Assembly (NCBI GenBank): GCA_937944405.1 | Contig: CALDYR010000042.1 | Location: 3,107 to 67,106, forward strand | DNA length: 64,000 nucleotides | Direction: 5' to 3' | DNA from: an uncultured Pirellulaceae bacterium | GTDB lineage: Bacteria > Planctomycetota > Planctomycetia > Pirellulales > Pirellulaceae | In this document: in pieces, positions 3,337 through 25,487 of the stretch | Layout of the letters: the number at the start of each line of letters is the position of its first letter | Numbering within the stretch: the stretch's first letter is position 1 | Made by a program: the position numbers and the translations under genes | Notes under the pieces: model-generated | What the model saw: the letters and a program-made list of their open reading frames with translations, nothing else | Database searches by the model: none | Told to the model about the DNA's origin: nothing

Positions 3337-6300
3337 TCAGCGCCCATCGGATTGAACCCGCACGATCGCCAGCACATCTTGATCGTCGGATTTACCAGAA
3401 TCAAGTGTGACTGCGCTGCCCCCAGAAACAGTTGAAGTCGCTTCTCCAACGATGCTTTCTCCGGTCGCCGGGTCAAACCATGTTACGGAGTATTGGCCTT
3501 GGGCCGAAGTCAAATCTAATTGTGTTGAACCTGCGTGGGGCAAATAAACTAAATAAACATCACCGGATTTCGCTAAACAGTATTTTTTATTGGAGAACTT
3601 TGGGTTGCCCACCAACTCATCTGCAGGTGCCATGTCCTGTAAGGGGATGTCGTTATTGGCGAAAAAATCCAAACAGATCCGGCAGTAATCCCAACTCTGA
3701 TCGCGCGAGCGCCAATCTTCGCACCTCAAATCGTTTTCAGCAAATTTATACCCAAAGTAGTATTCCACTCCCGCGCCGCCCCCCATCACGTTGCCCCATA
3801 AGGTTTGTCTGCGAACGCGATGTTGATCGTAGATGTACTGCCCCGTGTCATCTCTACCATCAAATCCAGCATAACCAAGATCAGGACATTGCCCGTGTCC
3901 GGCAGATCCTGATTCGTCAAACGCGACGACCCAAGGTCTACCTGCCGCCTCCGACGCTCGCACCCATTTAACGGTCTGCCAATGCGTATCTTTGATGTGG
4001 CTGTTCTGCAAAGAGACGCCGGTTAGTTCTGATTTATCACCGATCAAGCGGTTGTAAATTTTATCTTGCTGGCCGGGATAGGTGTGCAGCACGACGTGGT
4101 GATCGTAAGGATCGGTTTGGCTGATATAGTGGCTCATGTCGATTTGTTGCCGCGTTGATTGTGTGTTCTCTTCTCCAAGATTCCAGTTCAGGGCCAGATT
4201 ATGACCGAACCGAGCCACCATTTCTCGCAGATACAGTTTTCGTTGCACTCCAAGATTCCCCCCGTCAAGCGAAGTCGGCGTCCAAGCCTTTTTTTTCTTA
4301 TGCCCGCCACGATGGTCATCGTTTTCCGTTTCTTGTAGTTTGAAATGCAGGTACATCCCTTGGGCTGTGCCATGGTCAAACACTATGCCCCACTGATCAA
4401 GCTTACTGCAGTCGTAGTGAAGTTTGTCATCGCGTTGTACAAACGGCCAAACGTTATCACCATCGCCGCCGGCGTTGTACGTCAAGAACGAAAACGCATT
4501 ACAGCCCTTGCCGGACAAATAATTCACCGCACCGATCAAACCTTTTCCTTTGCCATCTTTCCACGTAGGGTCACCAACCTGCCAGTCGCGAAGATGCCGG
4601 GTGAACGTTTTCAGCGGGACGTTCTCCTTCCGGGCGCTCGTACCGTCGAAATCAGCATAGCCCAATAAAGTCTCCGGCGCATCGGCACCGGCTTTTAAAA
4701 AGTACTTCCCCGATCCAACATGTTGCAGGTAACGTTTGCCGACATACTTCAACCGCCCGGCGCTGCGAAAGTCGCTTGCTGGTTTGTCTGAGGCATCGAC
4801 GACCAATTGGCCGCGGGTCTCAAACATCGGTTCGACAGCAGCCTCAGCGTCAATCGCCGCTTGCTTTCCTTTGACGATCGAGGCGGTGAATGTCCACAAA
4901 CCGGTGCGGTCAGGTGCAAAATTAGTCCGCCACTGCGTCCCGGAATTTGCCGACGATTGAGCCGCATTGCCGTCGGCGGCAAAATAGCCGGGCACAACAT
5001 AAGTTGTGCCATCACTGTGCGTGAATTTTGTCTCCATGCGAATGTCGATAAACGGATTGGGATCGTTATCGTGTTCATGAGCGAATGGACCGTTCATGGT
5101 CAAACTGATTTTGTGCCATTGCCTCAATTCCCCCGTTACGCGTACCGTTCCGTCACCATCAGGTTGACGCGGACCGGTCAGCGGTCGTTGGCTGACCGGA
5201 TGGGTTGGACTGGTGGTGAAGTCTCGGTCCGAGTTTTGCGCGCCTGCTTTTTTCGATTTCACATTTTCAGGTTTCACATTTTCAGGTTTCACAGACTTCT
5301 TAGCCGCAGCACCGGTTTGAGCACGCACAAATTCGGCCCACTGGGTTCGAGTTGCATCATCAGCAGGCTTAAACGCGAGTGCTTCCCACCGAGCGCGGCT
5401 GTACTCTTGACCGTCGGTCGAAGCGATCGTCGATTTCACGATTACCGTTTCGTGGTCTTTGATGTTCAAAGATTTCCACTGGCGGTGATACTTTTCTCCC
5501 GTTTCAAACGTGTTGGTAGACAACGGGCAAGTGTAGGTGTCCAGTTTCAGATCACCGATGGTCACATTAAACGTTGACGCCCCATCGTTTTCGCCGACCG
5601 TCTGCAACACCACGTCATAAACTCCTGCTGGAATCGGCAAAACAATCGTTGCGGCGGCCGATTGGTGTTTATCTGGATCGATTGCGAGCCACTTTTTTTG
5701 ATCAACGTAGTAATTCGATGCGCTGATGGAAAATTTAGTCGCTCTGATTACCATGCCATCGGCGGTTAACGCGGCTGTTTTTTTCTTGCGTGTTTTCTTT
5801 GCCTTAGCCGGAGCTGAAACCGCAGGAACTGCGACCAATGGAAACTTGGGGAGGTCCGAAGCGTTACTGGTCGAAACGGGGCCCGCGTCCAAGGGGCGGT
5901 GAAAGTCGCGGTCACGGGTCATCAACCACTTATCAAATTCGAATCCGTCTTCGCGCATCGAGAAATGAATCGTATGAATACCTTCGGTCGGGACGTCTAA
6001 GAAGATTTTATGGGGCTCGCCGCAATGGACTCTTCCGGTGCGTTGTTTGCTTTCCCACCACCATTGCTGTTTGCCTTCACACCACTGTAGTCGCTGCCCG
6101 CTCTCAGGCCACGATCCATCGATTCCCACATGCAGGCCGTTGTCTTCGCTGTTGCTGGAATAGGCGCGCACCCACACAAAGTATCGGCCGGGAGTGGAAA
6201 AATTTACCTTATAAGAGACGACCGCGGCTTTGCCGGGTTGATTAGTAAAGTTTCTTCCCGGTCGCAGTTCTTCCCCGTGGTTTCGGCGGGTGTCAGGTAA

Positions 6301-6636
6301 AATCTCTAAATAAGCGCCGTTGCTGGCTCCTCCGACATGTGGTGGGTCGCCATCGGGCTCAAATTTGGGAACCGTATCGGAGTTGGTTAAGTAAAACGCG
6401 CGTGTGTCCACAAGTTCTTGTTGAAAGAAATGCTCCGCCTCAACCGCGACCAAGCCATCGACTTCATTGAAGTGGGTCGACGGTTCGACGATCGGATCGA
6501 AACTGCCTTGCCCGTTCGCGCGTTGCCCCAATCCCAAATTGACGATGCATCCAGCGATCAGTAGGGCCAGCAAGCGGCTCAAACGATTGGACAAGAAAAA
6601 ACAGATCATCGCGTTCATCATTTTTTGTCTCTGCAA
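3337..6636 (-). CDS. Secreted multidomain DUF5060 / glycoside-hydrolase-like TIM barrel / C-terminal collagen-binding-like protein
   Basis: N-terminal signal-like segment; VAVEAEHF carbohydrate-binding-type module; DUF5060-like [35 protein letters not shown]; barrel with WNLGEEN and FDESG; C-terminal [17 protein letters not shown]. Confidence 0.75.
5257..5293. repeat. 15-bp tandem repeat x2.5 (encodes KPENV repeats)
   Basis: TTTCACATTTTCAGG twice plus a partial third copy, in a linker of the DUF5060 protein. Confidence 0.9.
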
Positions 6637-6921
6637 TTTGGTTTAAAACAAGGCCAATAAACAAGGCCATTATCAACGGCTTTGATTTCACTACTCAAGT
6701 TAACATATCGCAAGCCCGGTTCGATAGTTTCACGGCCCGGTTCTCTGCAAAGTTATTTCGAGAGCTCACCAGAAAGTTTATGAGAAAACTGTCTTCCGAC
6801 GGTTTGAAAAACTTCGTGGCAAGGGGGCGTTTTCTTTCGCGGCACAGGCTGTTTGACAAATCCAAGCCGATCGGGGACAACTTAACCTCCCTCCACATAC
6901 TTCTCTACCGAAAGACATCTG

Positions 6922-7956
6922 ATGCCGCTCGCTTCTCCCCCCACGGACTGGGTGCGCGCTGTTCGCGCCACGTTAAAAGATGCCGATCAGGATTTCCACC
7001 AAGTCAAACCGCTAATCTACTGGCGGGACATGATCACCAGCGGTGTCATCGCTTACGCTTCGGCGGCGGTATTCATTTCGGCCCCCGCGTTTTCGATCTG
7101 GCAGATCGCGGGTTACCTGTTGGCTTCATTTTGGCTGTACCGTGTCGGTTCTCTTGTTCATGAGGTCGCCCATCTTGGTGGCCACGAACAGACGTCGTTT
7201 AAGGTCGCTTGGAATTTGTTAATTGGCATCCCAACGCTGACGCCATCTACGTTTTTCACTGGCCATCATCGCGACCATCACTCGCAAAAATTCTACGGGA
7301 CTCCCGCCGACCCCGAATACGTCGTCAACGTTTGCCAGCGTGGCAGCATCGTCAATCTGGTGCTTTATTTCGCGTTCGTGGCGATCTTTCCACTGATCGT
7401 GTTTCTGCGATTTTTGTTGGCGCCGCTGACGTTTATCACCCCAGGAGTGCGTGAATTTACACTCCGCCGTCTTTCCGCGCTCACGTTTAACTACCAGTAT
7501 CAGCGTTCTATCAGTACCATCCATCGAAAACGATTTGCGTGGCTGGAACTGGCGTGCTGTGCCCGCGCGATGTTGATTCCTCTGGTGATCGTGGTCGGCA
7601 TTCGTCCTTGGACGCACATGTTGATGTTGTATTCTTTAGGAGCGACGGTGGTAATTTTAAACCAATTACGTCAACTGGCGGACCATCACTTCGAAGGCGA
7701 CGGCAACCGGTTGAGTGTGTCGGATCACATCATGGATTCATGCAACTACGTGGGCCGCGACCCGTTGACTTGGCTGTTCTTTCCATTTGCGATTCAGTAT
7801 CACGCGCTGCATCACATGTTCCCTTCGTTGCCCTATCACAATTTAGGGTTCGCTCATCACTATTTGATGAAAGAACTGCCCATCGATTCCCCTTACCGTG
7901 ACCTCGTCCAACCGGGGTGGTGGTCGGTGGCCGTGAAGATGTTGCGGCGGGGTTAG
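6922..7956 (+). CDS. Membrane fatty acid desaturase family protein
   Basis: Three His boxes (HEVAH, HHRDHH, QYHALHH) with intervening transmembrane segments. Confidence 0.9.
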   Translation: MPLASPPTDWVRAVRATLKDADQDFHQVKPLIYWRDMITSGVIAYASAAVFISAPAFSIWQIAGYLLASFWLYRVGSLVHEVAHLGGHEQTSFKVAWNLLIGIPTLTPSTFFTGHHRDHHSQKFYGTPADPEYVVNVCQRGSIVNLVLYFAFVAIFPLIVFLRFLLAPLTFITPGVREFTLRRLSALTFNYQYQRSISTIHRKRFAWLELACCARAMLIPLVIVVGIRPWTHMLMLYSLGATVVILNQLRQLADHHFEGDGNRLSVSDHIMDSCNYVGRDPLTWLFFPFAIQYHALHHMFPSLPYHNLGFAHHYLMKELPIDSPYRDLVQPGWWSVAVKMLRRG

Positions 7957-7985: not shown

Positions 7986-10211
7986 CTAGATTGACACGAT
8001 CAGTTGATACATTTCGTCCGTCGTGGTTGCCGCCAGTAAACGCTCGCGACGCGATTCCGATCCAACCAATCGCGCAATGTAAGAAAGATGTTCGAGATGG
8101 GCCTTAGGGTCTCTTGTTGGGCTTAACAGCAAAAACACGATCTCCACCGGTCGATCAGTCAATGGGCACATCAGGGATTCCCTAGAACGGGTCACCATCA
8201 ATACAGATCGTTTGATGTGGGGCGACCAATAATGCGGCATCGCAATCCCGTGCCCCAGCAGACTGGAGTACTCCTGTTCGCGTTTCCAAATATCGGCCAA
8301 CGTTGATTCGGGATCAATACTATAAGATTGGCGTTTTAAATGAATCAGCATCTCGCGATACAGTTCCACCAGTTCCGCTTGGTTGGACTGGGTAACATTG
8401 AATGGAATCAACGGCAGCGCACATTGATGTTGACCGCGCCGCAAATCATAAACCAGCGACTGGTCCCCGGCGTTATACGTCTCCTGTTCACCTAGCAACA
8501 AACCGACATCTGGACGCACCGTTAGCAAAACATGCGATTGGTCCGCGTTGTTTTCAGACAACATTGCCCCTCCCGCGTTTGGGTGGTCGTTAGTTTGAAA
8601 TTGTCGCGTCGAAAGCGGAGGCAATTCGCAGTCTGGCTGCATCCATCGGCTTAATGGTATTTCGCCCCAAACCGCTTTGCCAACTAAGAGATGCCGGTTT
8701 TCATCTGATTCGTACCCCGTTTTCTCCCACCGATAGAGCGATTTGGGATTGAGCATTTCGGCCCAACGTTGACAAACGATGCGATTCAAATCCTGATTGG
8801 TCGTGATTGCCAATAGGTTTCCACACGAGTAGAGTTCGGCGTGATTGTCTGGATTCATTAGGGTCGCGTCTTGATGGATTGCCACCAACCCCTCTCGACG
8901 TGCGCCCCTGACCTCACGCGGGTTGGTATCCACCAACACCACATCCAAATTCTGCCGGGTGAGAAAATCGGCAATACTCCTACCCATCGCGTGGGCCCCG
9001 ACGATGATCCATCCTTGGGGGGCTGGCCGGACCACCCCCAGATACCGACCGACCACGCCGGCGGTCAGTCCCTGCACCAAAACCGTTCCCGCGATGACCG
9101 AATAAGTAAAGGTCTCCAAAAATTGAGCTTGCGTGGAATCGCGATGGGACAACTCCAGCGCAAACACAGACGCCATCGACGCCGCCACAATTCCGCGCGG
9201 CGCGATCCAACTGAGAAACAGTTTCTCTTTTACCGTGACGGGGCTGAACATCAACGACAGAAACACATTCAATGGCCTAACGATTAACATCAGGGCAATG
9301 ACAACCAGTGCCAGTTTCCACCCGAAAGCCACAAACGAGTACAGATCAAGATTTGCCGCCAGTAAAATAAACAACAGCCCGATCAAGAAATCTTTTAGCT
9401 CAACCTTATAGCTGACAATGTCGCGCAAATGCACTGACGTCTGGCTTCCCAAGACCAGCCCAGCCACCGTCACGCTCAACAAACCGCATTCCGCGATCAC
9501 AAGATCGGCGATCGCAAAGTTCAACATGGCCATGGCCAAGACGAATATGTTGGTGTGTCCTTTGTCGATCCAGTTTCGCTTTAGTATCCAGTGTAACGTA
9601 TAACCGAACACGATCCCAACAATCGCGCCGGCGGTGAACCTAAGCAAAAAATCTAGGACCGGCGATTCATGACCGCTGCCGGTGCTGACGTAAAACTCGT
9701 AGCTCAACAATGCGATGAACACACCGATCGGGTCAATCAGCACGCCCTCCCAGTGCAGAATATGGTGTAAATTTTTGGTCACGTTAATTCGATGCAGCAG
9801 CGGCCCGATTACCGTCGGGCCGGTCACAATCACCAAACTTGCCGCCAAAAAACAAAACGGCCAATCAAAATCAAAGATCAACTTTAATAACGCCGTAGTT
9901 CCCAGCCACGTCACCAAAACGCCGACCGTTAGGATGCTTAGAATCTCGCGTCCGACGCTACGGTAGCCCTTTAGATCGAGTGTCAATCCGCCTTCAAAGA
10001 GGATGATTCCGACCGCTAACGAGATAATCGTCCCCAGCCCGTCGCCCAGTACATCGGGCTTCACCCAGCCCAAGACCTGCGGTCCGACCAGCACACCACC
10101 GAGCAGCAACACCACAATCGCTGAGGTGCGAAAATGAGCCGCCAGCGTCGTCAGCCCTACGCCCACCGCCGCCGCGATCGTAAACGTCGTTAAAATTTCT
10201 TGACCGTGCAT
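7986..10211 (-). CDS. Cation/H+ antiporter (CPA1/NhaP-like) fused to RCK/TrkA-N and PTS EIIA domains
   Basis: About 12 TM helices with LFEGGL, VTGPTV, WEGVLIDPIG and PRGIVAAS; Rossmann WIIVGAHAMG; C-terminal HGIAMPHY..IVFLLLSP..HLEHLSYIARL (EIIA phospho-His motif). Confidence 0.88.
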   Translation of the reverse strand: MHGQEILTTFTIAAAVGVGLTTLAAHFRTSAIVVLLLGGVLVGPQVLGWVKPDVLGDGLGTIISLAVGIILFEGGLTLDLKGYRSVGREILSILTVGVLVTWLGTTALLKLIFDFDWPFCFLAASLVIVTGPTVIGPLLHRINVTKNLHHILHWEGVLIDPIGVFIALLSYEFYVSTGSGHESPVLDFLLRFTAGAIVGIVFGYTLHWILKRNWIDKGHTNIFVLAMAMLNFAIADLVIAECGLLSVTVAGLVLGSQTSVHLRDIVSYKVELKDFLIGLLFILLAANLDLYSFVAFGWKLALVVIALMLIVRPLNVFLSLMFSPVTVKEKLFLSWIAPRGIVAASMASVFALELSHRDSTQAQFLETFTYSVIAGTVLVQGLTAGVVGRYLGVVRPAPQGWIIVGAHAMGRSIADFLTRQNLDVVLVDTNPREVRGARREGLVAIHQDATLMNPDNHAELYSCGNLLAITTNQDLNRIVCQRWAEMLNPKSLYRWEKTGYESDENRHLLVGKAVWGEIPLSRWMQPDCELPPLSTRQFQTNDHPNAGGAMLSENNADQSHVLLTVRPDVGLLLGEQETYNAGDQSLVYDLRRGQHQCALPLIPFNVTQSNQAELVELYREMLIHLKRQSYSIDPESTLADIWKREQEYSSLLGHGIAMPHYWSPHIKRSVLMVTRSRESLMCPLTDRPVEIVFLLLSPTRDPKAHLEHLSYIARLVGSESRRERLLAATTTDEMYQLIVSI

Positions 10212-10377: not shown

Positions 10378-11574
10378 TCATCCCTTTTTCAAAACCGTAC
10401 GCAATCGCCGCACCACCCTTTGGGTTAACGGAAGCATTTGGACCGCTTGGCGGGCGATGCCGGGACGTAAACTCAATATCGCGTTTTGAAACGCAAGTCG
10501 CTGTCCCCAGATTCGGTTGATCGATGAACTGCTATTGGCAGTGCATGAATCTCCCGTTTTGACTCCATCTCGATGCAGATAGTCCAAGTTTTTCGCCTCT
10601 ACCTGCGTTCCAGGTGAATACGCTGAAAACTGGTCGTCGTAGGCCGTTTTATAAGAGCACACGTAATCTCCTGAGCGAATATCGGAGATCATCGCGATAC
10701 GACGTCCATCGAGCATCAAACTTAAAAACCTTACCTTTCCAGCGGCAGCACTTTCGCTGATAAGGCTTCGGTAAAACGCGCGCGTGTCGTCGGCACACCC
10801 CAAGGCGGTTCCTGACTCCCCCTTCCAACCGGAGGCTTCAATGGCCATGAAGTCTTCGGCAAGCTGTTGAAAGTCACTGTTTTCATCGGTTGATTCCCAA
10901 GTCACTTCTCCCTGACCGCTCAGTCGCCGCAATAATCGGCGAAGCTTCTTCTGCAGGCTTTTAGAAACGTTATTTTGAAGGTATAGCTCCGACGACGGTT
11001 CTGCCACAAACGCGGCGCGTTGAAAATGATCGCGCTGAAATCGAAGGATGTTCCGTTGCTGCTCAACGGTCTTCAAAACAGAATCGAATTGTGGTTCGGC
11101 GACGACGGTGTCAAGGCTGAGGATGGCGTACTGCGATTCCAGCAAGGCCTCGCAAATCTTCGCCCAAGCGGCAACTCCATGCGTTTTACACAACAAAGGC
11201 GTTGCATCAAAACACTGGTCGTGCTTCCAGACTTCGGCTGTTTTAAACGGTAATCGAAAGACGCTTTTGGTTTCAATGGGGACAACCGCAACCAAGTTTT
11301 TCTCGGGTGCTGCGGCTACATTTTCAACCACCAACAACCGTACTGAATCGTTTCCTAGGTGCTCCAATGCGGGGATCAAATAGTTCGGTTCCAAAGCAAC
11401 GTTTCGCCACAGCGGTGAATCCGCCAGACGGTTCCAAGCAGGTTCAAGGGATCGGAGTTCGGCGTTATCAACCCATCTGCTTTTGAACTCTGGAGTTACA
11501 TCGGTCTGCTCAGGTGCGTTAACAACTACAGGGAATTCAGCCACAAAAGGACTTGCAAGATTCGCTTCGTACAT
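10378..11574 (-). CDS. GNAT-family (CelD/BcsL, Acetyltransf_6-like) protein
   Basis: KKLRRLLRRL..WKG..G..LMLDGRRIA..YKTAYDDQFSAYSPG pattern. ATG at 11574 is preferred over the ORF start at 11706. Confidence 0.8.
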   Translation of the reverse strand: MYEANLASPFVAEFPVVVNAPEQTDVTPEFKSRWVDNAELRSLEPAWNRLADSPLWRNVALEPNYLIPALEHLGNDSVRLLVVENVAAAPEKNLVAVVPIETKSVFRLPFKTAEVWKHDQCFDATPLLCKTHGVAAWAKICEALLESQYAILSLDTVVAEPQFDSVLKTVEQQRNILRFQRDHFQRAAFVAEPSSELYLQNNVSKSLQKKLRRLLRRLSGQGEVTWESTDENSDFQQLAEDFMAIEASGWKGESGTALGCADDTRAFYRSLISESAAAGKVRFLSLMLDGRRIAMISDIRSGDYVCSYKTAYDDQFSAYSPGTQVEAKNLDYLHRDGVKTGDSCTANSSSSINRIWGQRLAFQNAILSLRPGIARQAVQMLPLTQRVVRRLRTVLKKG

Positions 11575-11955
11575 TTGCCCAATTTTCTCTCTGCGACTCG
11601 TTCTATTAACCAACTCGGTACGGAGATATCGAAGAGCCTTAACAAATAAAAATAGATAAAAGGTCCAACAAGGGACTCTGCAAATTTCCGAGTTGCCAGA
11701 GACCAAGTTTATTCAATCAAAACTAGGTTAAGATTTACGGACAAAAGGTAACATCTGCGGCCAAAGCTGGATTTTTCTCTTTTTCCCACCCCCACGCATT
11801 GAGACAAAGCTGAAAATTTCTCTGTGAGTAAACCCGAACCGCACGTTTTGGCAGAAAATTCGTGGTTTCAATCGACATCGGAATTCGATAATAGTAGAAG
11901 AACCTCCATTGGTACAAACCTGTCCGTTACCCTCCGTTTAACCCGCAGAACTGTG

Positions 11956-13056
11956 ATGACCGATTATCGAAAAAGTTTGCTAAAAATTGCGATAGGGCTA
12001 GGAACTGCTATAGGAATGGCCGTTGGTTTCAACGCTCGCGCGTTAGCGTTTCAATCAGGAAGCAGTAACGGCGCTTCGGCGGCCGGTTCTGGAAGCCGAA
12101 GCGCCGCGGAGATCTTAGCGGCACCTTCGTGGGAAATACCGCAGCCATCTTTTTCGTCACCTCAAGCTGATTGGATCAGCCCACACGAAATCTCGGTTCC
12201 ACAACCAAGTTCGCCGGCTGGACAAACAGGCGCTGTTTCCCAAAGTACGTCCCCTGGCATCCCCGAATCGGCGTTGGTCGATCCGGTGTTCGCGATTAGT
12301 GACCCCATGTCCATTGATGCCATTGATCACTCGCCATGGAATTGTTTTCTGGCACGGTACTTGATTACCGACAGTTTCGGAGTCAATCGCTTGCAATATC
12401 AGCGCGTCTCGCAAGCCGATCGCGCCGCGCTCAAAACTTACTTGAATCACCTTCAAGCCATCGACACGCGTACCCTAAACCGCGACCAGCAATTGGCATT
12501 TTGGTTTAACCTTTATAACGCGCGGACCGCCGATGTGGTTTTGGATAACTACCCCATTCGTTCGGTGCGGCAAATCAAGACGAAGCTTACCGATTTCGTT
12601 GGCCCCTTCGACGACCCGGCTGCGGTGACGGTACTGGGCATCGCGCTTTCGCTGAACCAAATTGAAAGCGGAATCGTACGGCCGGTTTGGAAAGACCCAC
12701 GCATCCATTACGCGCTGAATTGTGCTTCGCTTGGCTGCCCTAATTTATCGCCAACCGCGTGGACGGCGGAGCTGATTGAAGGGCGCCTTAACGCTGCAGC
12801 GTACGCTTATATTAACTCCGATCGTGGGTTGCAATACGGTTCACGGGGCGTTCGCACATCGAAAATATTTAAATGGTATAAAAACGACTTCGGTGGCACC
12901 GACGCAGCACTGCTGAATCACTTTCGGCAGTATGCAAGCCCAACCACTTTGGAAAAGCTCCGATGCCAGCAAAAAATCAGTGGCCATTTTTACGATTGGT
13001 CGCTCAACGACGCGCGGATCACTCGACGCCGTTTACTGGAACCCATCATCCGCTAA
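11956..13056 (+). CDS. Secreted DUF547 domain protein
   Basis: Signal peptide, Ser/Pro-rich linker, then QQLAFWFNLYNA..DPRIHYALNCASLGCPNL..SKIFKWYKNDFG. ATG 11956 is preferred over ORF start 11824. Confidence 0.85.
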   Translation: MTDYRKSLLKIAIGLGTAIGMAVGFNARALAFQSGSSNGASAAGSGSRSAAEILAAPSWEIPQPSFSSPQADWISPHEISVPQPSSPAGQTGAVSQSTSPGIPESALVDPVFAISDPMSIDAIDHSPWNCFLARYLITDSFGVNRLQYQRVSQADRAALKTYLNHLQAIDTRTLNRDQQLAFWFNLYNARTADVVLDNYPIRSVRQIKTKLTDFVGPFDDPAAVTVLGIALSLNQIESGIVRPVWKDPRIHYALNCASLGCPNLSPTAWTAELIEGRLNAAAYAYINSDRGLQYGSRGVRTSKIFKWYKNDFGGTDAALLNHFRQYASPTTLEKLRCQQKISGHFYDWSLNDARITRRRLLEPIIR

Positions 13057-13104
13057 ATGGGACGCGATTGGCGCCGATGACTACTCAAACCTCTCCCCTT
13101 CAGT

Positions 13105-14589
13105 TTGACAAACATGACGCAACTTCCTATCTACAAACCGCCGGTGGTTGATGATTTCGCCAGCATGTCGTCCGAAGTAACAGGTGACACCAACGACAGC
13201 GCGTTGGTCGATTACGGTGTAGGACAGTTTATCAAATCCACGACCAGCATTTGCCCTGTCTGTTTGGTGAAAGTCGACGCGTCCGTTTACGAGCGTCACG
13301 GCGCGGTCTACATGGACAAACAGTGCCAACAGCACGGACGCTACTCAGCGATGCTGGCCTCGGAACGTCGGCACTATTACGTCGCCGATCCTGAAATAGA
13401 ATCGGTGGCATGTTGCTGCGGACCCAACCAGCACTGTGGCGATCAAGTCGCAAACCATAGCTGCAACATGTTGTTAGAGATCACGCAAAGTTGCAATTTG
13501 ACGTGTCCAACGTGTTACGCCGGGTCTTCTCCACAAAACAAATCGTTCATGTCAATCGAAACATTTACGCAAACGTTGGACGGTTTGCTGGAAAAAGGGA
13601 AGGGGGATGCTGACCTGATTCAGCTTTCCGGCGGCGAACCAACGATTCACCCCGATTTTTTCGAGATCCTTGAAATAGCATTGAATAAAGGCGTTAAACA
13701 GGTCTACATCAACACCAACGCGATCAAACTGTCGCGCCGCGCGTTTGCTCAACGGGTGGCCAGTTTCGGTGATCGCGTTTCGGTCTATTTGCAGTTTGAC
13801 GGTTTCAAAGCGTCGACTTATGAAAGCTTAAGAGGTCGATCGGATTTATTAGAAACCAAAACCCGCGCCGCTGACTACTGTGAAGAATTTGGAATCAACA
13901 CCGTTCCAACGATGACGCTGACGCGCGAAATTAATGACGACGAAGTCGGTAAGTTTATCGATTGGGCCTCAGGACGCCCCCGGAGCGTTCGAAAAATAAT
14001 GATTCAACCTGCCATGTATTCCGGACGTTACGACAACCCGCGTTTAATCGAACGCATGACCGTCGCGGACGTGGTGAATAAAATATGTGCGCAAACCGGC
14101 GGAACCTTCACCCCAGAGGACTTTACACCGATCCCCTGTTCGGACCCCAACTGTTTTAGTCTTGGCGTTGCGGTGCGTGGGAAATCCGGACTGATGCCGA
14201 TTTCTCGTTACCTGCCGCGTTATGAAGATTGGGCCGCACCAGCCAATCGTCAGATGATCGCGGCCGTTTCAGACACCTTTGATAGTGCAAGTTCGTTCAC
14301 CGACATGATGGGCAAGGTCGTTGCGAGTGATGCGTTGACAAATCTTGATGACGCCGCGCTCGATGCGTTGTTAGATTTGGTCGAAGAACTTTCGGTAGAA
14401 AACTCCGCCAGCCACGATCCACAAAACTGGAACGGTATGTTTGCCATCGGCATCAAACCATTCATGGATGCTTACTCCTACGATCAGGATCGAATCGACA
14501 AATGCTGCGTGCATATTATTGCGGCCGACGGCACACCGGTTTCATTTTGCCAATACAACGCAATCAACCGACCAACAGGCAACCTTTAG
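13105..14589 (+). CDS. Radical SAM protein of the Tes/GDGT-MAS (MJ0619-like) family
   Basis: N-terminal TTSICPVC-x20-CQQHG metal site, CNLTCPTC radical SAM motif, SGGEPTIHP, PIPCSDPNC, and C-terminal FMDAYSYDQDRIDKCCVH..SFCQYN. Start may be ATG 13114. Confidence 0.85.
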   Translation: MTNMTQLPIYKPPVVDDFASMSSEVTGDTNDSALVDYGVGQFIKSTTSICPVCLVKVDASVYERHGAVYMDKQCQQHGRYSAMLASERRHYYVADPEIESVACCCGPNQHCGDQVANHSCNMLLEITQSCNLTCPTCYAGSSPQNKSFMSIETFTQTLDGLLEKGKGDADLIQLSGGEPTIHPDFFEILEIALNKGVKQVYINTNAIKLSRRAFAQRVASFGDRVSVYLQFDGFKASTYESLRGRSDLLETKTRAADYCEEFGINTVPTMTLTREINDDEVGKFIDWASGRPRSVRKIMIQPAMYSGRYDNPRLIERMTVADVVNKICAQTGGTFTPEDFTPIPCSDPNCFSLGVAVRGKSGLMPISRYLPRYEDWAAPANRQMIAAVSDTFDSASSFTDMMGKVVASDALTNLDDAALDALLDLVEELSVENSASHDPQNWNGMFAIGIKPFMDAYSYDQDRIDKCCVHIIAADGTPVSFCQYNAINRPTGNL

Positions 14590-14666
14590 TCGGTCTGGTC
14601 TGCCGCGTTTGCCGCAGATGATTCTTGTGAAATAGACCTTTCAACGCGCGAAGAAAACGAAGAATT

Positions 14667-15626
14667 ATGGCCAATTCAAACCCACCATCGGATTCTCTGG
14701 ACGCCGACAACGACGCCAACCCGGCAATGTGCTGTGCTAACTTTTACGAACAAGACATCGTCCAAGAACTGATGGGCGGAAGCTTCCACCCCGGTGGTGT
14801 TGATCTCTCGACGCGACTGGTGGAAAGCTTGTCCCTGCCTGCAGGCAGCAAGGTGCTTGATGTTGCCTGCGGAGTTGGAACCACCACCCGGCTGATGGCC
14901 GAAAAATTTGGATTGGTGGCAACGGGGTTGGACTACAGTTCGATTAACGTGCAAAAAGCAAAGTCTGCAGTCGCAACACAGCAACCGGCGGAAAATCCTG
15001 CCACCGAAGCACAGCCCTGCTGTGCTTCGGGTGAAGCGTGCTGCAGTGCCGACGAGGACGAACCATTGGCCAATCTCAATCGTTCTCTTACCGATTCTAA
15101 AAGCTTGACGCCGATCCACGGGGCCCCAACGTTTGTCCAAGGGTCGGCTGACGCGCTAGCGATGGACGCGGAATCTTTGGAGGGCGTGACTTGCGAGTGC
15201 GCGGTCAGCACCTTTGCCGATCAAGCCAAAGTTGCCAAAGAGTTCTTCCGTGTATTGAAACCCGGTGGGGTTTTCGGCATGACCGACATGGTCGTCGACG
15301 GGCAGCTACCGGATGATTTTGCCGAAAAAGCGGCACCATGGACGTGCGTTGCGCAGGCGTTGTCGATCAAAGGTTATCAAACACTGTTCGCGCAGGCTGG
15401 TTTTGAGATCCTCCACCACCAAGACCACTCTCATACGCTGGTGGAACTGGCGAGGGAGATGAAACGGAAACTGGTGATGGCTGGCATGGGACAGGCCCTC
15501 GGAGCGTTACCGGCTCTTGGGATGGATTTAAAGGAGATGCGCGCCATGCTCAATCAGTCAACCGAGCTGGTAAAATCCCAAACAATCCAGTACGCGCTGT
15601 TGGTGTTCCGAAAGCCACGAGGATAA
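14667..15626 (+). CDS. Class I SAM-dependent methyltransferase, ArsM-like, Cys-rich
   Basis: SFHPGG, VLDVACGVG (motif I), RVLKPGG; Cys in TCECAVS and PWTCVAQAL; CC pairs at the N-terminus and in an internal insertion. Confidence 0.85.
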   Translation: MANSNPPSDSLDADNDANPAMCCANFYEQDIVQELMGGSFHPGGVDLSTRLVESLSLPAGSKVLDVACGVGTTTRLMAEKFGLVATGLDYSSINVQKAKSAVATQQPAENPATEAQPCCASGEACCSADEDEPLANLNRSLTDSKSLTPIHGAPTFVQGSADALAMDAESLEGVTCECAVSTFADQAKVAKEFFRVLKPGGVFGMTDMVVDGQLPDDFAEKAAPWTCVAQALSIKGYQTLFAQAGFEILHHQDHSHTLVELAREMKRKLVMAGMGQALGALPALGMDLKEMRAMLNQSTELVKSQTIQYALLVFRKPRG

Positions 15627-15630
15627 TCCG

Positions 15631-17964
15631 TTGGATCGGCCAGTCGTATTTTGGCGCGAGAAGATCTTACTGCTTCTGTGGGTGCTGACGTTTCCGCCAG
15701 TGTTGTACATCTCTACACTACCCCCGCAACGGTTTCGCAGTGAAATCACCGAATGGGGCGACCGAGAATCAGTCGTATATTCTCAGTTCTCCGCATACCG
15801 TGAAAAATTTGGCCCCAATGAAGTGGTCATTCTCAGTTGGCCACAGTGCGATCTGTTTGACAGCCGCGTCGAAAAGGTTTGTACAAAAATCGAATCCCAA
15901 TGTGGTCATCTGGTTCGCGATGTTTCCAGTGGACAGAAAGCTTATCGGCTTCTCCGCCGGTATTCGGGGTTGAGTCCAGCCGATGCGGTGGAGCGTTTGA
16001 GAAATGTGTTCATTAGCGCATCGGGAGACGCAACGGCCGTTAGTTTTCACCTCACAGAGGCTGGACGTCTTGACCGCGGCGGCGTTCTTTCGCGTCTGGA
16101 TCAAATTTTAAAGTCCGAGAAAATTGATCCCCAATTGACCACCTATGCCGGGCTGGGGCACAATTTACATACGTTAAACCAAGAAGGCCTTGAGTCGCCT
16201 TTTCGGGTGGTCCCACAAATTATGCTGTTGGCGTTTGTACTGACCGTTGTGTTGGTGCGCAGCTTCTGGCTGGCTTTCTTCATCAATGCACTGGGGGCGT
16301 ATACGGGGTGTTTGTCCTTTAACATCGTCTGGTTGGCCGATGTTGATATGAACGCGATTATTTGGCCGTTGCCAACGTTGACGATGCTGTTGACGGTGTC
16401 TGCAGCAATGCACTTTCTTAGCTACTACCGGAAATCGGCGGAATCACACCAACCGACCGCAGCCAATGTTTCTCCCGGAGAGGGCCTAAACGACCTAGCG
16501 CTGCGAGCACACCGCCGCACGATCGCCAGATCCGCATTGCGGGCTTCTGCGAAACCGATTTTTTGCTGCACGCTGACGACATCCATCGGGCTGTTATCGC
16601 TGCTCCTGAGTAGCAGCGCACCGGTGCAGCAGTTCGGAATGTTTGGCGCGTTATCGATCGCTGCAGCCAACGTGCTGTTATTGGTTTGGTTCCCTCCATT
16701 TTTGACGGTGATTGGACACGCCGATCGGATTGAAAAACATATCGACAGTCAAAGTCCCTCCCAGAATCCCCATCCACTTCCCCCCCATTTACCCGACCGT
16801 TGGTGGCATTGGACAAGATTCACTCGCAATTACTGTCGGCTGATTTTCGCGGCGTGCCTGATATTACTTTTCACCGTCGCTTGGGGGATACCCAAAATCA
16901 CAACCGGCAGCGCGCTGAGCAATTTTTTTCCCGCTGGCCATCGAGTGCTTGATTCGGTGAGGAAGATGCAAACGCGCGTTGGACCTTTGAACGCTGTCGA
17001 ACTCTTGCTGACCTTCGATAATGTGAATCGGCATAACGATCGCACTAGAATTCGCGGGCTGCAAGTTTTGATGCATCACATTGAATCAACAACGGCATTT
17101 GAGTCGTGTACTTCAGCCGGAACTTTTGCTCCCCAGTTAGACCGGCATCCACAAGGCGTACGAAAAGCGATCCAGGATTCTCGTTTAAAACGTTTCAAAG
17201 AAGAAATCCACGGAAGCCTGTTACACAAAGACACTCATAATCGCCAAGAAACGTGGCGGGTTTCCTGCCGTTACTCCATTTTCAAAAACATTGATTTAAC
17301 CAAGCAAACTGAACAACTCAAACAGATCGTGGACACGGTATTCGCGCCCAACGGTCGATTGCTTTTTCCCGAAGAATCGCTAACGGTAACCACAACGGGC
17401 GAGTTTCTTCTGTTTGATGTTGTCGATCAACAGTTTTTATCGGAGCTACTGTGGGCTTACCTGACAGCCTTTCTCGCGATTGCCGTCGTCGTGTTGATCT
17501 TGCTGAAAAGCCTCAAAGCGGCGTTGATCGCGTTGCTGCCAAACCTATTTCCGGCGGTGGTAGTACTGGGCGGGGCAGGGTTATTAGGATATCCGCTTGA
17601 CGTTGCTTCGCTGATGACCGCGAGCGTCGCGTTGGGCATCGCGGTAGACGATACGATCCATTTTTTGTTATGGCATCAGGAAGTAGACCGGTCAAATCTA
17701 ACACAGCGGGAAACGATTGATCCGATCGATTCGGCGATGCGTTATTGCGGCCAAGCGATGATCCAAACCAGTCTGGTTATTGGCATCAGTATTTCGTTGT
17801 ACGCATTTTGTGGTTTTCTTCCGACTGTCAGATTCGGCATTTTGTTATCCGCGATGATGCTGGCCGCATTAATCGGTGACCTGTTGCTACTTCCTGCGTT
17901 GATGGCGATCTTTGGATCGCGTGAAGGCGACACCGCGCGACATGAAAGCGCTGATCAGCGTTAG
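15631..17964 (+). CDS. MMPL/RND-superfamily transporter
   Basis: Two repeats of TM1, a periplasmic loop and 5 TMs; GIAVDDTIHFL motif in the second half; starts 4 nt after the methyltransferase stop. Confidence 0.88.
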   Translation: MDRPVVFWREKILLLLWVLTFPPVLYISTLPPQRFRSEITEWGDRESVVYSQFSAYREKFGPNEVVILSWPQCDLFDSRVEKVCTKIESQCGHLVRDVSSGQKAYRLLRRYSGLSPADAVERLRNVFISASGDATAVSFHLTEAGRLDRGGVLSRLDQILKSEKIDPQLTTYAGLGHNLHTLNQEGLESPFRVVPQIMLLAFVLTVVLVRSFWLAFFINALGAYTGCLSFNIVWLADVDMNAIIWPLPTLTMLLTVSAAMHFLSYYRKSAESHQPTAANVSPGEGLNDLALRAHRRTIARSALRASAKPIFCCTLTTSIGLLSLLLSSSAPVQQFGMFGALSIAAANVLLLVWFPPFLTVIGHADRIEKHIDSQSPSQNPHPLPPHLPDRWWHWTRFTRNYCRLIFAACLILLFTVAWGIPKITTGSALSNFFPAGHRVLDSVRKMQTRVGPLNAVELLLTFDNVNRHNDRTRIRGLQVLMHHIESTTAFESCTSAGTFAPQLDRHPQGVRKAIQDSRLKRFKEEIHGSLLHKDTHNRQETWRVSCRYSIFKNIDLTKQTEQLKQIVDTVFAPNGRLLFPEESLTVTTTGEFLLFDVVDQQFLSELLWAYLTAFLAIAVVVLILLKSLKAALIALLPNLFPAVVVLGGAGLLGYPLDVASLMTASVALGIAVDDTIHFLLWHQEVDRSNLTQRETIDPIDSAMRYCGQAMIQTSLVIGISISLYAFCGFLPTVRFGILLSAMMLAALIGDLLLLPALMAIFGSREGDTARHESADQR

Positions 17965-22500: not shown

Positions 22501-23353
22501 GGACGTACAACTGTTGGGGCGCGTCGAATTTGTGACCCTGCGTGACGTTGTATTTTCATCGATTATGTTTTTGATGACTTACTTCGGCGTGCGAAACATG
22601 CCGGGTATGTTGGAACTACTGCTGCTGCAACGACTGCCATTGGATGCTGGAGCGCGTTATGCGGTGACATCGATCTTTCGCTATATTCTGTTGGTATTCG
22701 GAGCGATTTTAGCACTCGGATATTTAAAAATCCCATGGTCCAATTATAGTTGGCTGCTGGCAGCAATTTCGGTCGGTCTGGGTTTTGGTTTACAGGAAAT
22801 TGTGGCGAATTTTGTATCGGGTTTGATATTACTATTAGAACGCCCGGTGCGGGTTGGCGATGTCGTCACCATTGACGGTACCACAGGCATCGTTTCGCGC
22901 ATTCAGATGCGCGCCACGACGGTTACCAACTGGGACAATCAAGAACTCGTCGTCCCCAATAAAGACCTGATCACGGGGAAGCTTTTAAACTGGACGCTGT
23001 CCAGCGTCGTCAACCGTTTGTCGCTGAAGTTTGGCGTGGCCTACGGGACCGATCCGGCTTTTGTCCGGCAAATTGTATTGGATGCGATCAGTCCCATCCG
23101 CGCCTTGTTGAAGGAACCATCGCCCATGGTAACCTTCGAAGAATTCGGTGACAGCAGCCTCAATTTTACGTTACGTTGCTGCGTATCAACGATTGAGCGC
23201 CGATGGCACATCGTGCATGAGCTGAATGTCGCGATCAATACGGTCTTGAAAGAACACAACATCGAAATCCCCTTTCCCCAGCGCGATCTTCACATTATCG
23301 ACAGACCAATGCCGTTAGAAACGACCGATGAAAATGCAAACGCGCAAAACTAA
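19544..23353 (+). CDS. Large MscS-family mechanosensitive channel (MscK/KefA-like)
   Basis: Signal peptide, long coiled-coil periplasmic region, about 11 TMs, and C-terminal GLGFGLQEIVANFVSGLILLLERPVRVGDVV..IEIPFPQRDLH. Confidence 0.92.
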   Translation: MPTIAPVKSNVRFALTLAFICVNGFLYQISYSLAQPQPQFDRGQGFQTVPRRIAESDQNQDNNQNKNQGQQQALETVPEFDTAAPSQQAPSARDQPVFAPDSQPLSALNGSAETVTLRSIDGELEKVNALPDAEAPEIVEIKSLYQKAKLQITEANELNRALAQFKNTIRTAPAQLTQAQAELNSNSSAPKLPFSAETSVKQLPNLKDLKALKLEKEIQLQSISKRIDALAPTQQQTRATEIQREISSATQLRKETELQLKTPPTSENEFFVRARRTQLLAENEMLRLKIETLEAEAGSYEATSGLPAIQLELNRKWEVQLTKEIAIIDAAIHRRRQDEIDALNSMAIKTKRDVIQPLKKMAEDNIRLTVALRKLAKDIDDFAQQSATINAETARIVREQTTTESRIRVVGLSDSFGRMLQRNRNHLIAAEQQQKPINELNRDISDSQIAIFRWEDELELIRDIESSANEISQTLHRQGELGSNGPPTLDDALAAARDGATLLLQRRTAILGELKKLEYQRFQELVGMKTARVELENASAIYAELIDENILWVRNAPSMSVFDINDIVGASLRLAAPAKWHSVLKNLRDSFINNFPISILIVMCSGTLFLFRHRMLKELDRTGDRAVKRGCRTFGITVSAFVQTVMLAVTKLSPMLALGWLLARNTMGSDFSTSLGWALVGTFLIILPLELLNQSCRKKGLVHCHFDWTEKLRVLLRRNFGWMLPVIIPLLVVLLLLPMLGSETANGTPQFNASAMANLISGGQLDSGLSDPHPRNAVDALQGGFANSESWNRLGRVLLLVLLVITAIFSASIFHPQGALYADRELPIPQNTPKTKLRYFGYSVMIAVPLVLAAIAAVGYYYTSIRICESLLKTIALAIAVIILYSGAMRFLLVRRRNLRYEQLLHQRTQSRLTAEQKDLAAITGTASELIEIDLQNEPGLDITDVSRQARELTAVIFLLIAGGILLSIWQYVLPATKIMDDVQLWDVQLLGRVEFVTLRDVVFSSIMFLMTYFGVRNMPGMLELLLLQRLPLDAGARYAVTSIFRYILLVFGAILALGYLKIPWSNYSWLLAAISVGLGFGLQEIVANFVSGLILLLERPVRVGDVVTIDGTTGIVSRIQMRATTVTNWDNQELVVPNKDLITGKLLNWTLSSVVNRLSLKFGVAYGTDPAFVRQIVLDAISPIRALLKEPSPMVTFEEFGDSSLNFTLRCCVSTIERRWHIVHELNVAINTVLKEHNIEIPFPQRDLHIIDRPMPLETTDENANAQN

Positions 23354-24548
23354 GGCGCCCCCCGGCCAGTCGCGTCCCTTGTGTCTCCGATGTTTTCGCA
23401 CCCCAGAGCTCTGCTATTGCGAGGCCGTTGGGCGGGTCGACAACCAAACCGAAATCTTGATCTTGCAGCACCGGCGCGAACGGATGCACCCGTTCAACAC
23501 CGCCCGCATCGTGCACCGGACACTGGACAATAGCCGGTTGATTTGCGAACGCAACGAATTCCTCGCGACCATGGCGCTGCCAATTTCAGCCAACGCTGGT
23601 TTGCTGTATCCGGGTAAGGACGCCACGCTGTTGACGGAGGTCGCGCCCGATCAGCGCCCCGATCAATTGATCATTCTTGATGGAACGTGGCACCATGCGA
23701 AGACTTTGTATCGGGATGTTTCGGCGTTACATGGTCTGCCAAAATATCGGCTGGCCCCCGCTGAACCGGGCAAGTATCGAATTCGCATGGAGCCCAACGC
23801 AACGTCTTTATCAACGTTGGAGGCTGTTGCCGCCGCACTGCGACAATTGGAACCTGAAACAAAGAACATTACCGCGTTGACCCGCGCGTTCAATTGCATG
23901 ATAGAAAAACAGTTAGACCATCCACAATCGATTTACAGTGGATTGGCGGTGAAGCCCAAAAAAATTCCTAACGCCAACGTTCCCAAATCAATCACCCAAC
24001 CCACCGGCAATCTGGTTTTGGCCTACGGAGAAGCCACACCGATCGACTACACCGCGGTCGATGGCTGGGACGAATTAAATCGAAATCGCGCGACTTGCGC
24101 GCTTCCCCCGGTGTATTGGTGCGCCCATCGGTTCGGACACGCCGACGCGAAAGACCGGTTTTGCTGCTACCTTGATGGAGGAAAGAATCTTGTACCGAAG
24201 TTCTACGACTTCATCGATTTGTCGCCGCGTGAGTTTGATCATTCAGTTTCCGCGGAAACCTTTGCTCAGCAGTGGCAGGATTTCATTAAAGATGATGATC
24301 TACTGCTGATTTACAATTTCAACGCACTGAAATTGCTGCGCAATTGCGGAATCAATCACGATCCGTACCTCGCTGTCAACAGTATCAATTTCGACCCGCT
24401 GAAGAGGCATCGTTCGATTGAATCATTTGTCAGCCACCACCGTGGTACGTTGTCGTCGCCGCTATTCAAGGGGAGGGCAGGGCGTAGGTTAGCAACGATG
24501 ACTTCTCTGGTAGAAGTGTTGGCCCGAATCGATTCCGCAGAAGCTTAA
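23328..24548 (+). CDS. DTW-domain tRNA-uridine aminocarboxypropyltransferase (TapT-like) with a C-terminal extension
   Basis: CLRCFRTPELCYC zinc motif, LIILDGTWHHAK (DxTW), YRIRMEP..LSTLEA; about 190 extra C-terminal residues. Confidence 0.85.
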   Translation: MKMQTRKTKAPPGQSRPLCLRCFRTPELCYCEAVGRVDNQTEILILQHRRERMHPFNTARIVHRTLDNSRLICERNEFLATMALPISANAGLLYPGKDATLLTEVAPDQRPDQLIILDGTWHHAKTLYRDVSALHGLPKYRLAPAEPGKYRIRMEPNATSLSTLEAVAAALRQLEPETKNITALTRAFNCMIEKQLDHPQSIYSGLAVKPKKIPNANVPKSITQPTGNLVLAYGEATPIDYTAVDGWDELNRNRATCALPPVYWCAHRFGHADAKDRFCCYLDGGKNLVPKFYDFIDLSPREFDHSVSAETFAQQWQDFIKDDDLLLIYNFNALKLLRNCGINHDPYLAVNSINFDPLKRHRSIESFVSHHRGTLSSPLFKGRAGRRLATMTSLVEVLARIDSAEA

Positions 24549-24650
24549 ACGCCGATCCGATTGTCTTTAGTTCGTCTTTCGCAGAAAAATTCTTTGGCTA
24601 GCGTCGCTGAGCTGTCAAAGAAAATGGCCGCGTCTTTCCGATAAAGGTTA

Positions 24651-25271: not shown

Positions 25272-25487
25272 GATGCTGACCGCGTTGAGAACCGATAGTT
25301 TAGCCGATTTCCGAAGAAAACATTTATCAACACCCGGTATTCCAAGGGGCGGTTCATAAAATACTCAAACCAATCGAATACCTCATCGCACTCGCGACAT
25401 AACTGCGAAAGAAGAATTGAGGCTGCTATTTCGACGAAGCCGCTATCAATCCGACAAAACCTTGAACCGTCAAAACCAACGTACGAT

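Follow-up and report, generated by a model that had tools for sequence, protein, structure and literature searches.

Tes, or GDGT-MAS, is a radical S-adenosylmethionine (SAM) enzyme, and in its described mechanism the substrate carbon becomes attached, at an intermediate stage, to an auxiliary-cluster sulfur (review PMC13459092). Bacterial homologs of Tes have been cited as candidates for the synthesis of brGDGTs (branched glycerol dialkyl glycerol tetraethers), lipids used as paleothermometers (PMC8941075). A related enzyme, TrsS, is in many cases a selenoprotein, as its NCBIfam name and a table in PMC13188914 indicate, and its gene neighborhood, which includes a methyltransferase of the DVU_1556 family, has already been named (Haft and Tolstoy 2025, as cited in PMC13188914). 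Other radical SAM enzymes are coupled to the arsenic methyltransferase ArsM, ArsS in the synthesis of arsenosugars and ArsL in that of arsinothricin. Here we describe a four-gene operon in a 64,000-nucleotide stretch, referred to below as the window, of an uncultured Pirellulaceae bacterium (assembly GCA_937944405.1, contig CALDYR010000042.1, positions 3,107 to 67,106). The operon is predicted to consist of two modules, a catalytic core made up of a Tes-like radical SAM enzyme and a dedicated methyltransferase with four invariant Cys residues, and an envelope module made up of a DUF547 protein and an MMPL transporter. Our best guess is that the enzyme pair adds a methylated soft heteroatom, possibly arsenic, to a hydrophobic substrate.

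Conservation of the enzyme pair and its partners

The four open reading frames (ORFs) all lie on the plus strand and are separated by gaps of 48, 77, and 4 nt. They encode an exported DUF547 protein of 366 amino acids (11956..13056), a Tes/GDGT-MAS-family radical SAM enzyme of 494 amino acids (13105..14589), a Cys-rich class I SAM methyltransferase of 319 amino acids (14667..15626; matched by several class I methyltransferase models and by NCBIfam), and an MMPL/HAE3-type resistance-nodulation-division (RND) transporter of 777 amino acids (15631..17964). The gaps reported in the initial annotation proved exact when the coordinates were re-read from the sequence, and Pfam and NCBIfam agree with the four families to which it had assigned the genes. 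For the DUF547 gene the longest ORF begins at a GTG at 11824, while the ATG at 11956 yields a signal-peptide-like N terminus. The radical SAM gene may start at the TTG at 13105 or at an ATG at 13114 (491 amino acids), and the MMPL gene starts with TTG, preceded by AGGA 9 nt upstream.

A scan of species-representative genomes recovered 16 orthologous loci (59 to 84% identity) in Pirellulaceae, one proteobacterium, and one member of the Nannocystaceae, all with an adjacent methyltransferase gene unless the contig ended first. Further loci from contig look-ups and from a scan of metagenomes brought the set to 103, cited below by L numbers. The initial annotation had staked its reading on the two enzyme genes being kept together in other genomes. 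The methyltransferase gene was adjacent at every one of the 59 loci with at least 2.5 kb of downstream sequence; it was linked at 84 of all 103 loci and at 28 of the 28 long loci, defined as those with at least 5 kb downstream and at least 3 kb upstream. The pair spans Planctomycetota, Myxococcota, and a proteobacterium, and its genes often overlap or abut. DUF547, likewise claimed as part of the system, was linked at 59 of the 103 loci (35 of the 59 with sufficient downstream sequence; 11 of the long loci) in three gene orders: upstream of the radical SAM gene (the window, L005-L007, and L122), between the radical SAM and methyltransferase genes (a large clade, L136-L193), and downstream, as a fusion with a VTT/DedA membrane domain (L114 and L124). 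Because the methyltransferase is always adjacent and DUF547 recurs in three orders, the arrangement is more than a product of chance.

The third partner of the pair is either an exported DUF547 protein or a MerA/glutathione reductase-like FAD disulfide reductase, and rarely both. Of the long loci, 24 of 28 carry one or the other and only 2 carry both, and at least five partner switches can be placed on the radical SAM tree. The alternation of exported DUF547 with the cytoplasmic reductase was seen across L008-L020, L115-L120, and L123-L202. The reductase was linked at 26 of the 103 loci (20 of 59; 15 of 28). It scored 345 to 367 bits on the MerA model TIGR02053, below the cutoff, and its best model was NF004991 ("FAD-containing oxidoreductase"). 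Identification as a true mercuric reductase was rejected on that score and on the absence of the C-terminal CC pair, the mark of true MerA, from the unlinked homolog in the window genome. MMPL, which the initial annotation had counted as part of the system, was restricted to the small clade that includes the window (4 of 103 loci; 4 of 59; 3 of 28), DUF547 or the reductase being the more general partner. A Coq4-like gene was linked at 7 of the 103 loci (4 of 59; 3 of 28); in the clade of L011 the neighbors were a Coq4-like protein, an outer-membrane channel for hydrophobic compounds, and Lnb_N. Recurring neighbors in other relatives were AhpC, thioredoxin, gamma-glutamyl transpeptidase, DoxX, and hemerythrin.

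In the order, none of 250 sampled genomes contained the radical SAM gene, the methyltransferase gene, or the close DUF547 homolog. The cassette is thus rare in the order, yet close homologs are frequent in public metagenome assemblies. A literature search found no papers on this marine clade, its DUF547 partner, or its function.

A methyltransferase-coupled clade of Tes homologs

The radical SAM protein aligned over its full length (residues 29 to 486) with the GDGT-MAS/Tes structure 7tol in the Protein Data Bank (PDB) at an E value of 2.7e-55, which bears out its initial description as a Tes homolog. Its Pfam matches were PF23545 Zn_ribbon_HMPTM (60.8 bits) and PF04055 Radical_SAM (67.9 bits). 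The best NCBIfam models were TrsS (NF045646), at 265 bits against a cutoff of 490, and Tes (NF045702), at 222.5 bits against 450; the relatives at L115 and L119 scored 214 to 231 bits on the Tes model. All of the bacterial Tes-homolog groups examined fell below the cutoffs of both models, true TrsS proteins scoring 533 to 658 bits on TrsS. Identification of the window protein as a bona fide Tes or TrsS was rejected on the NCBIfam cutoffs, the tree, and the motifs.

The protein keeps the Zn-ribbon residues C47, C50, and C71, the CX3CX2C motif (C127, C131, and C134), and the C-terminal residues C464, C465, and C479. Vicinal Cys residues, which the initial annotation had noted in both enzymes, are present here as CCC in VACCCGPNQHC and CC in DKCCVH, and in the methyltransferase as the CC motifs of AMCCANFYEQ and QPCCASGEACCS. 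The auxiliary motif ahead of the radical SAM motif is altered to CC-x5-C in the pair clade, where the middle Cys is replaced by Asn and a new Cys appears at position 102, whereas the other groups keep the canonical C-x3-C-x2-C. Cys residues 256, 347, 464, and 479 occur in both the pair clade and TrsS and are absent from the "solo" group described below. In a tree of 78 radical SAM proteins, the methyltransferase-coupled sequences formed a monophyletic clade (100% support) on a long stem (1.5) that was sister (81% support) to TrsS and TrsS-like sequences and lay outside the TrsS clade itself (99% support). The window enzyme is best assigned to this unnamed clade, as a member of neither the Tes nor the TrsS family.

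Separate on the tree are the "solo" bacterial Tes homologs (29 to 37% identity) of Bacteroidota, Cyanobacteria, Chloroflexota, Acidobacteriota, candidate phyla radiation (CPR) bacteria, and others. When every ORF up to 8 kb from these genes was searched by profile, no Cys-rich methyltransferase turned up, and the pairing is therefore specific to the pair clade. Tied as it is to such a methyltransferase and to exported DUF547, the pair clade very probably performs different chemistry. Members of the solo clade (L021-L068) came from Flavobacteriaceae, Chitinophagaceae, Nostocales, Chloroflexota, Acidobacteriota, CPR, and one Poseidoniales archaeon, and they have a Cys pattern of their own, with CC at alignment positions 424-425.

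The full-length homology to GDGT-MAS raises the alternative that the window enzyme joins two acyl or alkyl tails by C-C coupling into a membrane-spanning lipid, with the methyltransferase as an accessory and the MMPL protein next door as exporter. Such a role would be in keeping with the attribution of brGDGT-type lipids to bacterial Tes homologs by Zeng et al. 2022, itself a proposal (PMC8941075). We consider C-C coupling very unlikely in this clade: the score on the Tes model is far from the cutoff (222 bits against 450), the long stem sets the clade apart, one cluster motif is altered, and the obligatory methyltransferase with its four invariant Cys is not accounted for. The solo clade, free of the methyltransferase, suits the brGDGT hypothesis better, and its members would be the better candidates for Tes-like lipid coupling.

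A methyltransferase with four invariant Cys residues

The best NCBIfam match of the methyltransferase was the DVU_1556 family (NF045667), at 139.6 bits against a cutoff of 155; the L011 ortholog scored 127.8 bits. As in that family, the gene adjoins a Tes-family radical SAM gene and its product keeps two active-site Cys residues. Four Cys residues are invariant in the family of the window protein, C22-C23 in CCANFYEQ, C178 in ECAVSTF, and C227 in PWTC, and all four are retained in 55 of 59 family members, the exceptions being truncated ORFs or true ArsM proteins. The four conserved Cys residues of ArsM, which we take to be C44, C72, C174, and C224 in CmArsM numbering, were checked in position against the canonical ArsM encoded in the same genome; there, the corresponding segments (window methyltransferase/ArsM) are AMCCANFYEQ/ALCCPVVYDQ, TCECAVS/VSNCVLN, and PWTCVAQA/LWSGCISGA.

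Within approximately residues 100 to 150 the window protein has a clade-specific insertion of the form CC-x4-CC, QPCCASGEACCS, which is almost restricted to the window and L005-L007; a similar CC...CC run occurs only in L125 and L127. The AlphaFold2 model of the methyltransferase has a predicted local distance difference test score (pLDDT) of 80.9, with low confidence in the insertion.

The envelope module

The DUF547 protein matched PF04784 at 76.7 bits against a gathering cutoff of 27, and the short forms at L139 and L150 did so at 65 to 70 bits. In the AlphaFold2 model a signal or anchor helix (residues 3-24) is followed by a disordered Ser/Pro/Ala linker of about 75 residues (26-100) and a domain (101-360) with pLDDT above 90. 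The two Cys residues of its C-x4-C-P motif (NCASLGCP; C256 and C261) are invariant in 42 homologs. Foldseek returned no structural neighbor of the domain in the PDB (best E value, 3.3). Each of the copies inspected had a signal peptide, a lipobox, or a fusion to a VTT/DedA membrane domain. DUF547 is a widespread domain that in plants occurs also as a glutaredoxin fusion, and in the literature search we found no published function for it and no description of it as a partner of MMPL proteins. The homologs P0121-P0240 carry the same C-x4-C-P motif, in a widespread domain whose fold is without a solved relative.

The transporter matched PF03176 at 56.8 bits against a cutoff of 20.5. Its hydropathy profile indicates 12 transmembrane helices in the order TM1, loop, TM2-6, TM7, loop, TM8-12, with two large periplasmic loops. 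Its best subfamily models gave scores below cutoff (TIGR00921 HAE3, 73 bits against 352; HpnN, 43.7 against 752), and the closest PDB match was CmeB (E value, 3e-4), no close structure having been solved. Orthologs lie downstream of the methyltransferase gene in L005-L007, and MMPL is present in L009 too. At L121 a DUF547 gene (56% identity) is followed directly by an MMPL gene (54% identity) without the enzyme pair. Because this orthologous DUF547-MMPL pair occurs by itself, the window operon is an enzyme pair nested inside an envelope module.

Proposed function and its alternatives

The model we propose is conjectural at every step. The radical SAM enzyme would generate a 5'-deoxyadenosyl radical and take hydrogen from an unactivated carbon in a hydrophobic substrate, for instance a hydrocarbon or the tail of a lipid, as Tes does. 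The substrate radical would then be caught by a soft heteroatom at the altered auxiliary site (CC-x5-C) in place of C-C coupling. Capture of this kind would be a small step from known chemistry, since Tes itself has an intermediate with carbon bonded to sulfur of the auxiliary cluster. In this marine lineage the heteroatom would most probably be As(III). The methyltransferase would hold it on the Cys residues at the As(III)-binding positions of ArsM and methylate it, and those residues would be reset by thiol redox partners, namely the adjacent FAD disulfide reductase in many relatives and an unlinked homolog here, possibly with a share taken by the periplasmic C-x4-C protein DUF547. Transfer of the lipophilic product into the envelope, or across it, would fall to DUF547 and MMPL. 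A hydrophobic or envelope target is favored, we infer, by the exported or membrane-fused DUF547, by MMPL, and by the Coq4-like, channel, and Lnb_N neighbors in the L011 clade.

The favored product would be an omega-(di)methylarsinoyl lipid or hydrocarbon. The arsenic version of the mechanism is possible but tentative. Its most specific form, in which the Tes-like enzyme bonds arsenic to the last carbon of an alkane or of an acyl chain, an ArsM-derived partner methylates the arsenic, and DUF547 and MMPL export the product, is quite unlikely to be correct in every part. The common arsenic hydrocarbons have C15 and C17 chains, the lengths of common cyanobacterial and algal alkanes, and such lengths would fit a terminal functionalization of alkanes. 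The initial annotation had regarded the biosynthesis of arsenic hydrocarbons (AsHC) and arsenic fatty acids (AsFA) as unresolved, and a 2024 paper concurs, describing the pathways as still unknown (PMC11009773).

Evidence on arsenic also comes from the genomes that carry the pair. In the window genome (G000), contig C150 encodes a four-Cys ArsM of 393 amino acids ending in CCGGDSCC (23169-24350, plus strand), followed by ArsS (24403-25473, plus strand), the latter bona fide by its score of 442.8 bits on TIGR04167 (cutoff, 300). The organism thus probably makes arsenosugars via ArsM and ArsS, independently of the operon. ArsS was present in 12 of 15 carrier genomes of Planctomycetota, compared with 7 of 22 genomes of the same family (p = 0.007) and 41 of 250 of the order (odds ratio, 20; p = 4e-7), values given without correction for phylogeny or habitat. 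At L114 and L124 an ArsM-ArsS pair lies 5 to 6 kb from the enzyme pair, and the shared synteny makes these a single event. A third such linkage, at L195, was rejected, the protein there (29% identity, 74 bits) being another radical SAM enzyme.

Several observations weigh against arsenic and against lipids. On the ArsM model (PRK11873/NF008823) the methyltransferase scored 73.8 bits against a cutoff of 263, and only over residues 155-269. Three of the four ArsM Cys residues are retained (in the CC motif, ECA, and WTC), but the YGCG motif that holds the other is replaced by an invariant FHPGG, and the Cys of YGCG, which the window protein lacks, is required in ArsM for the first methylation of As(III). 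The 50 best Foldseek matches included SpnF, AtmM, RebM, TleD, PEAMT, and SDMT and no ArsM; by sequence, the ArsM structure 5evj ranked eighth (E value, 1.9e-6). Because the nearest folds are of the RebM/SpnF/AtmM/TleD/PEAMT type, the likeness to ArsM is one of motifs and not of overall fold. The carriers represent only about four lineages, three of them with ArsS, so that at the level of lineages the p value is only 0.015 to 0.10, and among the 103 loci a true ArsS lies within 10 kb in only one syntenic lineage. A Pfam and NCBIfam scan of the window found no arsR, acr3, arsC, or arsH beside the operon. Partner genes across the relatives are mostly of thiol-redox type, not lipid genes, and TrsS with its DVU_1556 methyltransferase stands in a molybdoenzyme or cofactor type of context that has no lipid genes.

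Identification of the methyltransferase as a bona fide ArsM was rejected on the cutoff, the missing YGCG Cys, and the fold search. What stands of the initial designation as ArsM-like are the Cys residues at two As(III)-binding positions and the N-terminal CC; the score, the YGCG Cys, and the fold do not agree with it. The arsenic link that it proposed is likewise suggestive only, resting on the co-occurrence with ArsS across genomes, which is confounded by phylogeny, and on one syntenic lineage, against the lack of arsR, acr3, and arsC next to the operon. The arsenolipid idea is thus offered as a live hypothesis and not as a finding.

The redox character of the neighbors and the restriction of MMPL to one small clade are what would be expected if the pair modified a small molecule, a cofactor, or a protein-bound group, as TrsS and DVU_1556 probably do. 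The MMPL adjacency would then be a late, lineage-specific addition with a loose functional tie or none, in keeping with the occurrence of the DUF547-MMPL module without the pair, and the molybdoenzyme, AMP-ligase, and NTP-transferase genes around TrsS agree with such a target. The lipid context assumed in the initial annotation does not extend to this sister group. A non-lipid target is nonetheless fairly unlikely, as the sole characterized relative of the radical SAM enzyme works on lipid tails, the recurrent partner DUF547 is exported or fused to DedA/VTT, and another clade has the Coq4-like, hydrophobic-compound channel, and Lnb_N neighbors noted above.

In place of arsenic, the heteroatom of the proposed mechanism could be sulfur. 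The radical SAM enzyme would then halt at the C-S stage, which has its precedent in the C-S(cluster) intermediate of the proposed Tes mechanism (PMC13459092), and release, in the manner of LipA or BioB, an alkyl thiol or persulfide; the methyltransferase would S-methylate it to an omega-methylthio lipid, while its Cys residues together with the disulfide reductase or DUF547 resolved mixed disulfides. The recurring thiol-redox neighbors (FAD disulfide reductase, AhpC, thioredoxin, gamma-glutamyl transpeptidase, and DoxX) speak for this version, which needs no arsenic genes and so fits the weak physical link to ars genes. We know of no thiol S-methyltransferase that requires an ArsM-like Cys set, however, and the window enzyme retains the N-terminal CC..Y(D/E)Q motif common to ArsM. 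With the co-occurrence of ArsS also left unexplained, we judge the sulfur version unlikely.

The same chemistry might also act on another soft element (Sb, Se, Te, or Hg), any of which, being thiophilic, would be bound by the Cys quartet of the methyltransferase. That TrsS is often a selenoprotein (NCBIfam name; PMC13188914) and that the reductase partner is MerA-like, with 345 to 367 bits on TIGR02053, are in line with this view. The scores of the relatives' reductases below the MerA cutoff and the lack of a C-terminal CC in the homolog of the window genome tell against it. Sea water, moreover, contains far more arsenic than any of these other elements, and the co-occurrence is specifically with ArsS. 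Another element in place of arsenic is therefore highly improbable.

Genomic setting

The window lies on contig C42 of a 3.95-Mb genome that is 93% complete, and its nearest relatives are Pirellulaceae/Mariniblastus-like metagenome-assembled genomes. The genes around the operon are on the other strand or unrelated. The divergent intergenic region between a GNAT gene and the DUF547 gene (11707..11955) presumably holds the operon promoter; no strong sigma-70-like match was found within it, and the promoter and terminator scan stayed at the level of shuffled sequences. The sequence scan likewise found no terminator-like site above chance in the gaps between the four genes, which permits their co-transcription.

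On the 5' side, the divergent GNAT gene, of the Acetyltransf_6 type (10378-11706, minus strand), had as its best NCBIfam match a BspF-like crotonyl transferase (125.9 bits, far below the cutoff). Beyond it is a gene for a CPA2-type K+/H+ antiporter fused to TrkA_N and PTS EIIA(Ntr)-like domains (7986-10211, minus strand). A HExxH peptidase-like gene and an MscK-like channel gene flank the operon on its 3' side.

Two of the related loci have distinctive surroundings. At L114, in a complete 4.9-Mb genome, an MbnB/TglH/ChrH-family gene, an HvfC_N gene, and a 141-amino-acid upstream ORF lie beside the pair (5481-7817), a cluster resembling an Hvf-type peptide system. On the flanks of this cluster a Crp-type regulator, with a zf-HC2 anti-sigma-like gene, occurs in two copies (2771-3986 and 14702-15805). 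At L122 a gene for an MIP-family channel of the aquaporin/aquaglyceroporin type (13389-14237, minus strand) directly follows the DUF547, radical SAM, and methyltransferase genes. Channels of this type can let As(III) pass; with only the one case, the placement could be due to chance.

Significance and comparison with known systems

Our findings indicate that at least three groups of bacterial Tes homologs exist, the solo group, TrsS, and the methyltransferase-coupled clade, and gene surveys should separate them. DUF547 gains its first firm genomic context. Should the C-As reading prove true, the operon would supply the missing biosynthetic route to arsenic hydrocarbons and fatty acids, which are the arsenolipids found in marine food webs, and would represent a new class of radical SAM reaction, the formation of a C(sp3)-heteroatom bond on lipid tails. 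Part of the "bacterial Tes homologs" of brGDGT studies would in that case do something else. The protein families and the TrsS/DVU_1556 neighborhood are already known; the chance of new chemistry is real, if unproven.

The window MMPL protein shares its domain, its 12 transmembrane helices, and its two periplasmic loops with the MMPL/HAE3-type RND lipid exporters HpnN and MmpL3. It differs from them in falling far below the subfamily cutoffs and in being paired with DUF547.

With the couplings of ArsM to ArsS or ArsL the operon shares a radical SAM enzyme tied to a methyltransferase that has Cys residues at As(III)-binding positions and an N-terminal CC..Y(D/E)Q. The radical SAM partner in the window, however, is Tes-like and is neither ArsS (TIGR04167) nor ArsL, and the methyltransferase lacks the YGCG Cys, the C-terminal domain of ArsM, and a score above its cutoff. 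The window genome also holds a separate ArsM-ArsS pair of its own.

Like Tes/GDGT-MAS (MJ0619; PDB 7TOL and 7TOM; NF045702), the window radical SAM enzyme has a Zn-ribbon/rubredoxin-like N terminus, a CX3CX2C core, and C-terminal CC...C cluster ligands. It differs in its identity of about 30%, its score below the cutoff, and the change of the auxiliary C-x3-C-x2-C to CC-x5-C, and its clade is always paired with a Cys-rich methyltransferase, whereas Tes needs none. The host bacterium, moreover, is not known to be a tetraether maker.

A further system for comparison is that of TrsS and DVU_1556 (NF045646 and NF045667), whose models are the best NCBIfam matches for both window enzymes, yet both enzymes score below the cutoffs. 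Among 301 genomes of a Desulfobacterota-type phylum, 26 carried true TrsS operons. Their genes run in the order aldehyde oxidoreductase, an Fe-S/FAD/CCG oxidoreductase of about 800 amino acids, a 70-amino-acid Zn-ribbon protein, DVU_1556 methyltransferase, C_GCAxxG_C_C protein, TrsS, PaaK-like (AMP) ligase, and NTP-transferase/HD/phosphatase. The operon looks like one for the maturation of a molybdoenzyme or its cofactor. In the operons inspected (L094-L107; G296, G288, G260, and others) a MoeA-like gene was often nearby. The order methyltransferase, C_GCAxxG_C_C protein, TrsS is unlike that of the window; TrsS-associated methyltransferases are without the N-terminal CC motif of the window enzyme, and the TrsS context has no DUF547 and no MMPL. 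Conversely, apart from the methyltransferase, none of the TrsS neighbors (DVU_1553-type ligase, C_GCAxxG_C_C protein, small Zn-ribbon protein, and Fe-S/FAD and aldehyde oxidoreductases) was present in the window or the 103 loci. What the two systems share is a Tes-family radical SAM enzyme tied to a methyltransferase with "EC" and "xC" active-site Cys residues, with a disulfide-type reductase nearby. The lipid-export context is not part of this shared arrangement, and the pairing of Tes-family radical SAM enzyme, two-Cys methyltransferase, and disulfide-type reductase is therefore itself old.

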